This document shows positions 31,468 to 35,471 of a stretch of DNA of 54,622 bases, one piece after another. The position numbers were made by a program, and so were the translations under genes. The notes under the pieces are model-generated. The model worked only from the letters and a program-made list of their open reading frames with translations, searched no databases and was not told the origin of the DNA. This DNA is from a candidate division WWE3 bacterium RIFCSPHIGHO2_01_FULL_40_23 (GTDB taxonomy: Bacteria; Patescibacteriota; WWE3; UBA101185; 2-01-FULL-41-18). The number at the start of each line of letters is the position of its first letter. The first letter of the stretch is position 1. The stretch is taken from positions 1-54,622 of the forward strand of contig MEUZ01000001.1 of assembly GCA_001772615.1 (NCBI GenBank), in the 5' to 3' direction.

Positions 31468-32160
31468 TTATTCGCCCAAGAAACGGAGTATTAAATCAGG
31501 GGAGACGGAGTTAATGATCTCCGGGGAAAGAGCCCCCTCCTCTAGTGCGAGGTACGAATACCAATCTGCAACATGATCCCGCAAAGCCTCAAGCAGTAAA
31601 CGCTCGGCCGCCTCCTTGTTTCGCAGCTGATCCCTCGTTTCTTCATTTCTTACAACCATATTCGTAGGCTTATGCGTAACTCTTACTGATGAGGCAACTT
31701 TATTAACGTTCTGCCCTCCGGCCTTAGTATGGGATCTTATAAAATCAAAGCGGCAGTCAGACTCAAGGTTCACAGCTACCTTCTTATTTTCAAGGCAGTT
31801 TCTAACCCAACTACAGTATCCCTCAAAAAACCTGTTTTCCTCCTCCGCGTTTTTAAAACGTGGGAAGCTCTGTAAAACACCCATAATCCTTCCCTGCGCT
31901 TCCTCTTTTCTTTTTTCCTTGGAAAACGAAACGGATATCTCAAAAGCTTTTGCCGAAGTTTTACTCCCCTTAGCCCTTTCCTTTCCTCCTTTGCCGCCAC
32001 CCTTCCCTCCCCTTTCAGGGTTCACATGTTCAAAATCTTCATATGCTTCCCACAGCTCCTTTTTTTCTTCTTTGACTTCACCGGAATTTTCAACCGGTTT
32101 ATCGCCATCCCCACCACCATTAATCAACGCATCATCCGTCGTTTCAAACCTATTGCTCAT
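31468..32160 (-). CDS. Standalone class I peptide chain release factor (GGQ) domain protein
   Basis: F.RS...AGGQNVNKV.S.VR.TH.PT...V.....R.Q..NK..A...L. Confidence 0.88.
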   Translation of the reverse strand: MSNRFETTDDALINGGGDGDKPVENSGEVKEEKKELWEAYEDFEHVNPERGGKGGGKGGKERAKGSKTSAKAFEISVSFSKEKRKEEAQGRIMGVLQSFPRFKNAEEENRFFEGYCSWVRNCLENKKVAVNLESDCRFDFIRSHTKAGGQNVNKVASSVRVTHKPTNMVVRNEETRDQLRNKEAAERLLLEALRDHVADWYSYLALEEGALSPEIINSVSPDLILRFLGE

Positions 32161-32519: not shown

Positions 32520-32619
32520 GACACACTCCTCCAATTCAGTTTAGGATTTTGAAGACTTCAGCGGGGAAACAAGTTATGATTATAGGAAAATATTTTTAAA
32601 GATGCAAGCGCAAAAAGAG

Positions 32620-32694
32620 CGCCCCCGGGAGGATTTGAACCATCCACTTCATCCGTTAACCGCGGATTGCTCTATGCCTTTAAGCTACGGGGGC
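32620..32694 (-). tRNA. Atypical tRNA-Asn(GTT), possibly a pseudogene
   Basis: GCCCCCG/CGGGGGC acceptor, ATCCG/CGGAT anticodon stem, loop CGGTTAA (G33), extra T in the T-stem, no encoded CCA. Confidence 0.75.
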
Positions 32695-33922: not shown

Positions 33923-34537
33923 TTACACTCTTCTTGCTTTCACAAGGAGTCTTTTACTATAGTCTTGGCTTTTATAATCCCATACCCCACCGCAGGTTAT
34001 AAGAGTTATAATGGGCTCCTTAGAATCTTCGTATGCTTTAGTCACGGATTCGGGGTCATTCACGGGAACATAAGAAACCTCATATACCTTAAATTTCCGT
34101 ACTTTACCCACTTCATCCTTTACCTCAACCTCATCCCCTTCTGAAAGGCTGACCAGATTATAAAAAATTGCGGGAGCTCCGCCGGGCCTATCAAAATGCC
34201 CAGCTAAAATTGCATTACCCTCTTCTCCGGCTTTGGGGCCGTTTTCATACCAACCCACCTCATTATAATTTGACGGTGTCTCAAGCCTTCCGTCCTCCTC
34301 TACTCCGATTTCCACTATATTAACGTCTTTCAACCCGATTTTGGAAATACTTATTGAAACCGGCTTGAAGACTAAAGGCTTTAAAAGTGACTTAAATAAA
34401 GAGGCATTAATCTCATTAGTAAAATTCTCCTCTGCCTTAATATTCGGATGTGAAAATTTTTCAAGTGCAAAAAGAGCGGTCCCTAAAGCCGCTATAGCGA
34501 GTAAATTAAACCATCTTTCATTTTCTATCTTCATCAT
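33923..34537 (-). CDS. Class F sortase
   Basis: VGWY..GPKAGEEGNAILAGHFD...ITLITCGG.WD......KRLLV. Confidence 0.93.
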   Translation of the reverse strand: MMKIENERWFNLLAIAALGTALFALEKFSHPNIKAEENFTNEINASLFKSLLKPLVFKPVSISISKIGLKDVNIVEIGVEEDGRLETPSNYNEVGWYENGPKAGEEGNAILAGHFDRPGGAPAIFYNLVSLSEGDEVEVKDEVGKVRKFKVYEVSYVPVNDPESVTKAYEDSKEPIITLITCGGVWDYKSQDYSKRLLVKARRV

Positions 34538-34560
34538 GGCACTACACCTTCAAATGTACA

Positions 34561-34589
34561 TTGTAATAATATACTACAATTTATATAAT
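34561..34589 (+). promoter_or_regulatory. Promoter of the tRNA-like gene
   Basis: TTGTAA-17-TATAAT, 12 nt upstream of 34602. Confidence 0.65.
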
Positions 34590-34601
34590 ACCTTCCGTGG
34601 T

Positions 34602-34689
34602 GGAGGGTATTGCCCGTCGGACGGGACCTACTTCAACAAAGTTGGATTCGCAAACCGCGGATAGAGTTCGACTCTCTTGCCCTCCGCCA
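34602..34689 (+). tRNA. Non-canonical tRNA, allo-tRNA/selC-like 8/4 structure, anticodon ambiguous (UCA or AAC)
   Basis: 8-bp acceptor GGAGGGTA/TGCCCTCC plus GCCA, D-stem CCCGT/ACGGG, 6-bp variable arm ATTCGC/GCGGAT, 4-bp T-stem AGAG/CTCT with TTCGACT loop. Confidence 0.75.
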
Positions 34690-34711
34690 CACTAGATGTA
34701 ACTCCAACCAA

Positions 34712-34739
34712 TTGACAATGAACCAATATATGTTATTGT
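34712..34739 (+). promoter_or_regulatory. Promoter of the downstream sRNA
   Basis: TTGACA-16-TATTGT with a TGn extended -10; predicted TSS ~34746. Confidence 0.65.
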
Positions 34740-34745
34740 AAAATC

Positions 34746-34822
34746 GTTGAAGTAGGTAAAAGCGAACTCTATTCGCTTTATGCGAATCCACAAAAAAGCT
34801 CCCGTTAAAGGGAGCCTTTTTG
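34746..34822 (+). ncRNA. Candidate antisense sRNA to the allo-tRNA-like RNA
   Basis: 34746-34757 is the reverse complement of 34626-34637; 34763-34790 pairs 25/28 with 34643-34670; ends in a GCTCCC/GGGAGC terminator. Confidence 0.65.
34793..34822. terminator. Bidirectional terminator
   Basis: A5-GCTCCC-GTTAAA-GGGAGC-C-T5. Confidence 0.8.
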
Positions 34823-34838
34823 TTTCTCGGAACTATCC

Positions 34839-35471
34839 TTAACTAAATCTTTTCTTAAGTCCAAGTCCCGTTATAATCATTCCCAATCCGTATAAAGTCA
34901 TAGGAATAGTCTGTTCAGGTCCTGTTTTAGGAAGTTCCTTGACGGCCTTTCCGAAGCAGACTGAAGCTGAATCACTCTTTTTATCTTTATCGCCGTCTTC
35001 ATCAATGTCAGCCTCAACCTTGGCTACGTTAGTTACGCACTCCGCTACTCCAGACTTAAATTCGCTGTCTTTGACTTTGGCTTTTATGTAAATGACAATT
35101 TTTTTGTCATTGCCATTGTCAATTCTCTCAAATTTCTGTGTTAAGTCGCCTTCTATAAGCTCAAGTTCATCAGGAAGTATATCCTTGAACTCAAGATCTT
35201 CTATGTCAACGTCGCCTGTGTTTTTGATCGTGATCTTAAAGGTTATAATATCGCCTTTGTCGGCGTTGACGCTTTCGGAAAAGCTTCCCGAATCGCCTAT
35301 TCTTACAACCTTTTCTATATCAAGACCTCTGTCGCATTCAAGACCGCCTCCGTAAGTTCTTTCACAAGAGTTAGCAAATATAACTTTGTTCATAAATACC
35401 ATACCTGCTACCGAAAGAACTATAAAAGTAGATATACCGAGTATTAACTTTTTAGTATATGTATTAAACAT
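34839..35471 (-). CDS. DUF11-like repeat protein with C-terminal LPxTG sorting signal
   Basis: Signal peptide; KGDIITFKITIKNTG...D.LP..L (DUF11-like); LPKTG then hydrophobic stretch then KKRF. Confidence 0.88.
   Translation of the reverse strand: MFNTYTKKLILGISTFIVLSVAGMVFMNKVIFANSCERTYGGGLECDRGLDIEKVVRIGDSGSFSESVNADKGDIITFKITIKNTGDVDIEDLEFKDILPDELELIEGDLTQKFERIDNGNDKKIVIYIKAKVKDSEFKSGVAECVTNVAKVEADIDEDGDKDKKSDSASVCFGKAVKELPKTGPEQTIPMTLYGLGMIITGLGLKKRFS

Follow-up and report, generated by a model that had tools for sequence, protein, structure and literature searches.

Within a stretch of 54,622 nucleotides (nt) from the candidate division WWE3 bacterium RIFCSPHIGHO2_01_FULL_40_23 (contig MEUZ01000001.1, positions 1 to 54,622; hereafter the window) we find a tRNA gene of unusual type (34602-34689, forward strand) and, in tandem behind it on the same strand, a predicted small RNA (sRNA) gene that is antisense to the anticodon arm of this very tRNA. 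The co-variation of the two partners across homologous loci clearly argues that selection maintains the intermolecular pairing of a dedicated sRNA with the anticodon arm of a tRNA with conflicting identity and anticodon, and we consider it very likely that the two RNAs are functional partners. Taken together, the sequence evidence points to a hitherto undescribed, RNA-only restraint of a potentially miscoding tRNA. A first-pass annotation of the window, made from the letters alone, had proposed just such a unit, i.e., an allo-type tRNA and a dedicated, separately promoted antisense sRNA, and this core reading is upheld by the homologues, the co-variation and the position of the promoter.

A predicted antisense RNA behind the tRNA gene

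The complementarity between the two genes falls into two blocks. The bases at 34746-34757 (block A') are the exact reverse complement (12/12) of block A at 34626-34637 (ACCTACTTCAAC; forward strand), a segment comprising position 26, the anticodon stem's 5' strand and loop bases one to five, AAC included. Further on, 34763-34790 (block B') faces block B at 34643-34670 (forward strand; from the end of the anticodon stem's 3' strand through the complete variable arm and the T stem's 5' strand into the beginning of the T loop) with 24 Watson-Crick (WC) pairs and one G.U pair over 28 positions, arranged as 10 + 1 + 3 (+ G.U) + 10. The first-pass annotation, which had listed a perfect 12-nt complement, a 25/28 match and two blocks in the same order, had counted correctly, and recomputation gives a crossing, not a nested, pairing.

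The predicted sRNA is ca. 79 nt long (34746-34824, forward strand, both ends predicted). A sigma70-like promoter with an extended -10 element, TTGACA-16-(TG)-TATTGT, begins 22 nt 3' of the tRNA (34712-34739, forward strand, 10/12 consensus match with the TG), and downstream of block B' lie an A run and an intrinsic terminator (GCTCCC-GTTAAA-GGGAGC, 34798-34825, either strand, terminator scan), with a T run behind its stem (34798-34815). The second promoter and a terminator near 34822 had both been anticipated from the letters, as had an sRNA hairpin with a CTCTA loop, which is present in the minimum-energy fold (AAAGCGAA/TTCGCTTT, 34759-34779); an alternative hairpin, ATTCGC/GCGAAT at 34771-34787, is mutually exclusive with it. 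The terminator is symmetrical (A6 before the stem, T5 after it) and probably serves the sRNA and, on the opposite strand, also the adjacent gene for an LPXTG protein. The terminator scan detected no terminator between tRNA and sRNA in the window, and inspection of the sequence and its open reading frames (ORFs) revealed no plausible peptide ORF in the cassette. Upstream of the tRNA, a consensus scan locates a putative promoter, TTGTAA-17-TATAAT (34561-34589, forward strand, 10/12 match), the spacer of which holds an inverted repeat, ATTGTA-N9-TACAAT (34560-34580), a possible operator.

In the genome of the window the block A duplex amounts to about -20 kcal/mol, and the tRNA's own anticodon arm to only -1.8 kcal/mol. 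The sRNA seed is specific for this tRNA among the 47 tRNAs of the genome (-19.9 vs. -7.0 +/- 1.8 kcal/mol). Complementarity of this extent is far beyond chance: 51 ordinary tRNA-Ser and tRNA-Leu genes of the same class compared with their own 200-nt downstream flanks give a longest WC run of 6.6 nt on average and 8 nt at most, 54 tRNAs with Ser anticodons and the same 8/4 architecture (an 8-bp acceptor stem and a 4-bp T stem) give mostly 6-8 nt, and 80 viral 8/4 tRNAs (among the matches listed) no more than 10 nt. These flank controls, together with the compensatory changes and the bias of G.U over A.C described below, rule out both chance and a simple inverted duplication. No Rfam 15 family matches the sRNA at the gathering score or at E-values up to 10, apart from terminator look-alikes. 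A 14-nt copy of block A (ACCTACTTCAACAA) occurs on contig C4 (22241-22254), in the codons for a conserved EPYLLQQG motif of a RuvB-like gene; the seed could pair with it, and we judged this candidate second target coincidental, probably a product of chance.

Structure and identity of the tRNA

ARAGORN predicts an 88-nt tRNA at 34602-34689 (forward strand) with the valine anticodon AAC at 34635-34637. Its loop, UCAACAA (34633-34639), carries C33 in place of U33, and the first-pass annotation had read the anticodon as UCA. That claim does not hold: the model-aligned loops of relatives are UUAACAA and CUAACAA, and the register common to the homologues yields AAC, which also leaves the proposed opal-suppressor variant of the idea unsupported. 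The Rfam tRNA-Sec model (RF01852) aligns end to end with the gene but with 29.4 bits falls short of the gathering score of 47, and the general Rfam tRNA model stays below its threshold at 34602-34689; covariance models of our own score 92.8 and 79.3 bits. The AAC register, the 4-bp T stem and the sub-threshold tRNA-Sec score rule out an opal-suppressor or tRNA-Sec identity.

Read from the sequence, the acceptor stem has 8 bp (GGAGGGTA/TGCCCTCC), the D stem 5-6 bp with a D loop of 3 nt, the variable arm 6 bp (ATTCGC-AAACC-GCGGAT) and the T stem 4 bp (AGAG/CTCT), which makes an acceptor branch of 12 bp; the anticodon stem, CCUACU/AGUUGG, contains a U.U mismatch and is weak. A discriminator G73 and an encoded CCA complete the molecule. 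The first six acceptor pairs (GGAGGG...CCCTCC) and G73 are identical to those of all four tRNA-Ser genes of the genome, the long variable arm is likewise as in these genes, and the comparison of acceptor stem and G73 with the genome's tRNA-Val genes revealed nothing in common. The tRNA hence unites serine identity elements with a non-Ser anticodon, as allo-tRNAs of the 8/4 type do. Seryl-tRNA synthetase (SerRS) needs no contact with the anticodon, so that even a masked tRNA could still be charged. Because the acceptor stem, G73 and the long variable arm match those of the host tRNA-Ser, and SerRS ignores the anticodon, the window tRNA is probably charged with serine.

The genome (ca. 1.01 Mb, 99% complete, 40.5% GC) belongs to an order that includes metagenome-assembled genomes (MAGs) labelled Candidatus Saccharibacteria. 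Its tRNA set is already complete, with Val-CAC, Val-UAC, Val-GAC and the four tRNA-Ser genes included, and GUU, the codon for an AAC anticodon, is its most common valine codon (33.7 per 1000 codons).

Homologous loci and co-variation

In what follows G000 denotes the genome of the window, other G numbers its relatives, and L numbers loci from wider scans. With the window tRNA and two partial hits as its basis, a covariance model run on 89 genomes of the order recovered ten high-scoring members in eight genomes (at least 48.9 bits, vs. at most 42 for ordinary tRNA-Ser), and a refined model applied across the class placed members at 71 bits or more and everything else at 52.5 or less. All ten loci share one layout, i.e., tRNA, a spacer of 25-45 nt, a TTGAC(A)-type promoter, an antisense segment, a small hairpin, an A run and a terminator, and in all ten the antisense segment is complementary to the anticodon arm of its own locus. 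The longest run between a tRNA and its own downstream segment is 9-16 nt with WC pairs and 12-18 nt with G.U pairs allowed, compared with a mean of 6.8 nt for cross-locus pairs and 6-8 nt for the upstream flank of the same tRNA. The block A duplex averages -22.3 kcal/mol for cognates and -7.7 +/- 4.0 kcal/mol for cross pairs, and where a genome has two modules (G016, G079) the paralogues are orthogonal to each other. Duplex energies were used in place of whole-molecule RNAcofold, which is unable to combine trans pairing of the anticodon arm with an intact acceptor stem, so that the gains it returns (-6 to -13 kcal/mol) are underestimates.

The existence of homologous loci in which the tRNA and sRNA blocks co-vary had been set beforehand as a check on the idea, and such loci were found. 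Across 44 unique, model-aligned loci, each of the tRNA positions 26-39 finds a pairing base in the cognate sRNA of 79-100% of the loci, and most of these positions show three to six types of pair. Even the anticodon bases co-vary: position 36 is engaged as U-A in 25 loci, C-G in 14, G-C in four and A-U in one. Cognates pair on average at 12.43 of 13 positions, and shuffled partners at 8.53 +/- 0.22 (1000 shuffles, maximum 9.25). Where the pairs are not WC, G.U outnumbers A.C by 50 to 21 (p = 8e-4), and by 24 to 5 at isolated positions; this excess argues that the selected pairing is one between RNAs of this strand and not between DNA repeats.

The -10 box ends 5-9 nt ahead of the first paired base in each of the 26 loci that match the sigma70-like consensus at 8 or more of 12 positions, and this fixed distance predicts that the sRNA begins with its antisense seed, which is single-stranded in the sRNA's own fold in most loci. 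On the tRNA side, 39 of the 44 loops retain U33 and R37 (a purine at position 37).

Predicted secondary structure of the family

By these alignments the tRNA appears to be a genuine cloverleaf with one weak arm. Among the 44 homologues the 8-bp acceptor stem is paired in 100% of cases, its eighth pair co-varying (G-C in 34, A-U in nine), and so is the 4-bp T stem, where three of four pairs have changed on both sides; the five pairs of the D stem are formed in 93% and the variable arm in 98%. The anticodon stem, at 70%, falls below this range of 93-100%. Its three outer pairs are mostly open, and the same bases of its 5' strand pair with the sRNA in 86-97% of loci. The anticodon arms of partnered tRNAs average -2.8 kcal/mol, vs. 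-5.4 kcal/mol for 8/4 tRNAs of the Ser type (p = 5e-10), and the order is reversed for the duplex with the downstream flank (-25.9 vs. -14.9 kcal/mol, p = 3e-14).

The second block does not share this generality. The block B duplex of G000 reaches -40 kcal/mol, far stronger than at any other locus, and in most loci the energy of the equivalent contact is indistinguishable from that of cross pairings, with G000 standing out and perhaps G078 and G016a. Locus energies thus give no support to block B as a universal feature, a role left to block A alone, and we read the 28-nt block B as an elaboration particular to the window genome. Shorter contacts with the variable arm recur in some lineages and change in step within the AAC-type lineage of G022, G052 and L302 (G022 CUUGAGCGU/ACGCUCAAG, L302 ACUCCAUGAGU/ACUCACGGAGU); as hairpin arms are self-complementary, mimicry and pairing are inseparable for such contacts.

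Distribution and link to non-Ser anticodons

The U at position 8 is nearly universal in normal tRNAs. A pattern scan of one genome per GTDB species that required a purine at this position returned at least 119 loci. Among the matches listed, the tRNA-promoter-antisense-terminator layout recurs in Solirubrobacterales/Conexibacter, including the cultured Conexibacter arvalis DSM 23288 (L128), in Acidobacteriaceae/Terracidiphilus, in one gammaproteobacterial MAG and in other Patescibacteria. Gemmatimonadaceae were also considered as carriers, but the locus concerned (L069) is nearly identical to that of C. arvalis and probably stems from a mis-binned contig, so this phylum was left out.

Again among the matches listed, 8/4 tRNAs with non-Ser anticodons are followed by a 10-20-nt segment perfectly complementary to the anticodon arm of the same tRNA. 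GAU is the prevailing anticodon in this group, GAC comes next, and GAG, GCG, GAA, GGU and GUC are also present. None of the ca. 66 cellular 8/4 tRNAs listed with Ser anticodons (UGA, CGA, GGA, GCU) has a downstream complement. In the model-aligned set of listed matches a contiguous partner of at least 12 bp accompanies 38 of 44 non-Ser and 0 of 39 Ser 8/4 tRNAs (Fisher 1e-17). The six exceptions at this strict threshold comprise three mis-registered Ser loops and three loci (L059, L146, L130) that have partners with one mismatch, and weak-scoring non-Ser cases likewise retain partners with one mismatch or G.U pairs. At L303 the partner lies 790 nt downstream of its tRNA. We therefore find no stand-alone copy of a non-Ser 8/4 tRNA among the loci examined, as the weak cases are partnered and L303 has a distant partner. 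The 80 unique 8/4 tRNAs listed from viral contigs all carry Ser anticodons, and none of them (0/80) has an antisense partner beside it. The confinement of partners to tRNAs in which anticodon and serine identity disagree is what the model of a mistranslating tRNA neutralised in trans predicts.

Several loci show additional features. In three Acidobacteriaceae loci (L089, L171, L140) the ca. 20 nt upstream of the tRNA hold an 8-11-nt complement of the anticodon loop (e.g., GTTTCGCAGAC in L089), and the leader of the acidobacterial precursor may mask the anticodon as well; L171 also has a match to the Rfam Acido-Lenti-1 RNA (5922-5967, reverse strand, 42.1 bits) ca. 0.9 kb downstream of the module and clear of the sRNA. 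Six Saccharibacteria loci (L016, L041, L017, L018, L042, L011) share a conserved palindrome, AATTCTAG-N-CTAGAA, ca. 40-70 nt upstream of the allo-tRNA, and some of them carry TCAAGATCTTGA upstream of it; such palindromes could be operator sites for regulated transcription of the tRNA. The tRNA-sRNA spacer of four Solirubrobacterales loci (L128, L083, L069, L094) is ca. 130 nt long and contains the conserved ..ccggcggcc..gatcatg.gcctgcgg.., which might represent a small ORF or another RNA element. At L175, L087, L108 and L068/L070 three to five tRNA genes of the 8/4 type with long arms stand in tandem, reminiscent of the irregular-tRNA polycistrons that Mukai et al. (PMC5389517) reported.

Genomic context

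The cassette occupies a 301-bp gap between two genes that lie on the opposite strand and outside the module, one for a sortase (33923-34537, reverse strand; Pfam PF04203, E-value 2.6e-23) and one for an LPXTG-anchored DUF11 surface protein (34839-35471, reverse strand; PF01345, PF00746). In the nearest relative, G001, the homologous genes (proteins 63% and 46% identical, the latter figure being that of the LPXTG protein and its G001 counterpart) abut without a spacer, and we conclude from this synteny that the module is an inserted cassette of ca. 290 bp. With its bidirectional terminator the cassette stands between the sortase gene and the LPXTG-protein gene. The gap (34538-34830) yielded no promoter-like site on the minus strand, and any transcript running through it on that strand would be antisense to tRNA and sRNA alike.

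Neighbours differ at every other locus and are often housekeeping genes, and no conserved protein partner or regulated downstream gene emerged. The module precedes an RF2-like gene at two loci (G078, G079b) and a gene for a transmembrane/coiled-coil protein at three, neither arrangement being general. In the window a 230-amino-acid protein with only the RF-1 (peptidyl-tRNA hydrolase) domain is encoded ca. 2.5 kb from the module (31468-32160, reverse strand), and the presence of release-factor-type genes near modules in the window, G078 and G079b may be coincidental. A second tRNA-Asn(GUU) is called at 32619-32694 (reverse strand), in addition to a normal one at C1:144185; the Rfam tRNA model misses it at the gathering score, it has G in place of U33, a mismatched T stem and no encoded CCA, and it lacks an antisense partner (best run 6).

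A model for the cassette and its alternatives

We propose that this self-contained RNA-only cassette of ca. 290 bp gives rise to two same-strand transcripts. One would be the allo-tRNA, charged with serine and able, through AAC, to read GUU valine codons; the other would be the ca. 79-nt sRNA, made from its own promoter, whose single-stranded 5' end would pair with tRNA positions 26-39, i.e., the 5' strand of the weak stem and the whole loop. In the window genome the body of the sRNA could in addition form pairs along the variable arm and with one half of the T arm. Such pairing would invade the weak anticodon stem and bury the anticodon, blocking decoding and perhaps exposing the duplex to double-strand ribonucleases (RNases). 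The sRNA would then be a safety catch, or gate, on Ser-for-Val (elsewhere Ser-for-Ile) miscoding, with the tRNA active only once the sRNA falls. In this scheme we infer the transcription of both RNAs, the serine charging, the decoding, the effect of the pairing and the physiological trigger, and that the purpose of the sRNA is to restrain miscoding by a Ser-charged, mis-decoding tRNA is, in our estimation, a proposition on which the scales stand level.

Several points weigh on the other side. At least four contiguous stem pairs beside the loop are present in just 16 of the 44 family members, and with C33 in G000 and weak stems in most members, efficient decoding on the ribosome is not assured; allo-tRNA(UAU) species with destabilised stems were inactive in E. 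coli translation (Mukai et al., PMC5389517). Since blocks A and B come in the same order, they cannot stack into one continuous duplex. Valyl- or isoleucyl-tRNA synthetase might also charge tRNAs with AAC or GAU, which would remove the miscoding.

These weak or mismatched stems, and C33 in G000, suit a different explanation, in which the tRNA-shaped RNA takes no part in decoding and forms a regulatory pair with the sRNA; it would titrate a synthetase, a modification enzyme or the sRNA as a decoy or sponge, or carry serine for a non-ribosomal reaction, with the sRNA keeping it off the ribosome. The independence of SerRS from the anticodon, by which a masked tRNA could be charged, agrees with this, as does the position of the window cassette between cell-envelope genes, but that context is not shared by other loci and there is no conserved protein neighbour. 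Moreover, the loop keeps the canonical U33 and R37, one small set of anticodons (GAU, GAC, AAC) turns up again in different phyla even though the sRNA could follow any sequence, and the partner is tied specifically to non-Ser anticodons. On balance we consider a non-decoding pair possible but doubtful.

The restraint of a miscoding tRNA could also be put to a harsher use, that of a strict RNA-only toxin-antitoxin, addiction or abortive-infection module with the stable tRNA as toxin and the labile sRNA as antitoxin. The tRNA would recode frequent codons for hydrophobic residues (Val GUU in this genome, Ile or Val codons in others) and misincorporate serine proteome-wide, and loss of the cassette or a shut-off of transcription, e.g., a phage-induced block, would free it and lead to arrest or death. 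An inserted cassette that is compact, missing at the syntenic position of G001, sporadic in its order (eight of 89 genomes), present as two mutually orthogonal copies in G016 and again in G079, and never partnerless among the non-Ser loci examined, is what one would expect of such a module; the lack of a terminator between the genes would let read-through and the sRNA's own promoter keep the sRNA in excess, and allo-tRNAs near toxin-antitoxin loci, as well as two lethal variants, have been reported (Mukai et al., PMC5389517). Many loci, however, lie among housekeeping genes (gatCA, rnhB, rplS) and not in mobile or defence islands, the apparently stable retention across Solirubrobacterales suggests a physiological role, and a tRNA with so weak an anticodon stem may decode poorly. 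We regard an addiction module as unlikely.

A guiding function, by which the sRNA would recruit RNase III or a different nuclease for cleavage of the tRNA or its precursor, or would aid tRNA maturation, instead of masking the tRNA reversibly, has in its favour the 28-bp block B duplex of the window genome, which is long enough for RNase III, and the established fact that duplexes of type I antitoxins with their mRNAs are commonly cleaved in this way. Most loci offer a duplex of only 12-18 bp, short for RNase III, and guidance overlaps with masking without excluding it; as an explanation in its own right we think it quite improbable.

The idea that the downstream element is a cis-acting leader or attenuator of the T-box kind, or a DNA-level relic (a recombination site, a rearranged duplication or chance), is largely refuted and retains a very slight probability, since the terminator, the two mutually exclusive sRNA hairpins and the same-strand downstream genes of G022, G052 and G016a are outweighed by a convergent next gene in the window genome with no same-strand gene downstream, by downstream genes that differ between loci, by the absence of T-box (even at E-values up to 10) or other matches in Rfam and by a partner 790 nt away at L303, and a DNA relic by compensatory changes and a G.U over A.C bias that reflect selection on RNA pairing and by controls that exclude chance.

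Should the restraint of a miscoding tRNA by its sRNA prove correct, this would be the first sRNA with the anticodon arm of a mature tRNA as its evolved target. If the sRNA gates decoding, the module would be a programmable, protein-free bacterial switch for conditional mistranslation and a natural orthogonal "off switch" for suppressor and recoding tRNAs in synthetic biology, the paralogues within a genome being already mutually orthogonal. At least one carrier, C. arvalis DSM 23288, is in culture and non-pathogenic, which makes experiments feasible.

Comparison with known systems

We found no published description of such a pair in the literature on tRNA/antisense pairs and RNA toxins, and the main text of Weinberg 2017 contains no comparable RNA. 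Type I toxin-antitoxin systems (e.g., hok/sok) likewise feature a short antisense RNA that has its own promoter, a single-stranded seed and an intrinsic terminator and is directed at the RNA of a neighbouring gene, but here the target is a tRNA and there is no ORF for a toxin peptide, and the antisense gene stands in tandem on the same strand instead of overlapping on the opposite one. In type VIII systems (SdsR/RyeA, CreT/CreA; PMC8501985) both partners are RNA, and CreT acts through the tRNA pool. CreT, however, resembles an mRNA and acts by sequestering a rare tRNA, and repression of transcription by CreA depends on Cascade (PMC8501985), whereas the putative effector here is a complete tRNA whose anticodon arm the sRNA would pair with directly, with no protein partner encoded nearby.

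T-box leaders, too, are RNAs that recognise a specific tRNA partly via its anticodon. They read only the 3-nt anticodon and the acceptor end and control a downstream gene in cis, in contrast to the predicted duplex of 12-18 bp (up to 40 nt in G000) without a conserved downstream gene described here. Bacterial tRNA-Sec (selC) resembles the window tRNA in its long acceptor stem, 6-bp D stem and long variable arm, and gave the best, albeit sub-threshold, Rfam match; it differs in having an 8/5 branch (13 bp) where the window tRNA has 8/4 (12 bp), and UCA in place of AAC.

The closest relatives are the allo-tRNAs of the 8/4 class (Mukai et al. 2017, Nucleic Acids Res 45:2776), which have the same 12-bp branch, a Sec-like D arm and a long variable arm, and share with the window tRNA the combination of SerRS identity and a non-Ser anticodon. 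These SerRS substrates are reported to insert serine at leucine and stop codons in E. coli, and their native role has been called speculative, with a loose association with toxin-antitoxin loci (PMC5389517, PMC7609411). Their identity and anticodon disagree, they can miscode in E. coli, and how their hosts tolerate them has been a puzzle since 2017. The papers on them (PMC5389517, PMC7609411) report no partner RNA, and list neither the candidate phyla radiation/Saccharibacteria nor Solirubrobacterales/Actinomycetota. A co-evolving antisense RNA beside essentially every such gene would offer a concrete answer to the question of tolerance; such partners occur in Saccharibacteria, Actinomycetota, Acidobacteriota and one MAG of proteobacterial origin, and beside none of the Ser-anticodon 8/4 tRNAs examined. 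Unlike the allo-tRNAs as published, every non-Ser 8/4 tRNA that we examined is accompanied by an adjacent, co-evolving antisense sRNA gene.

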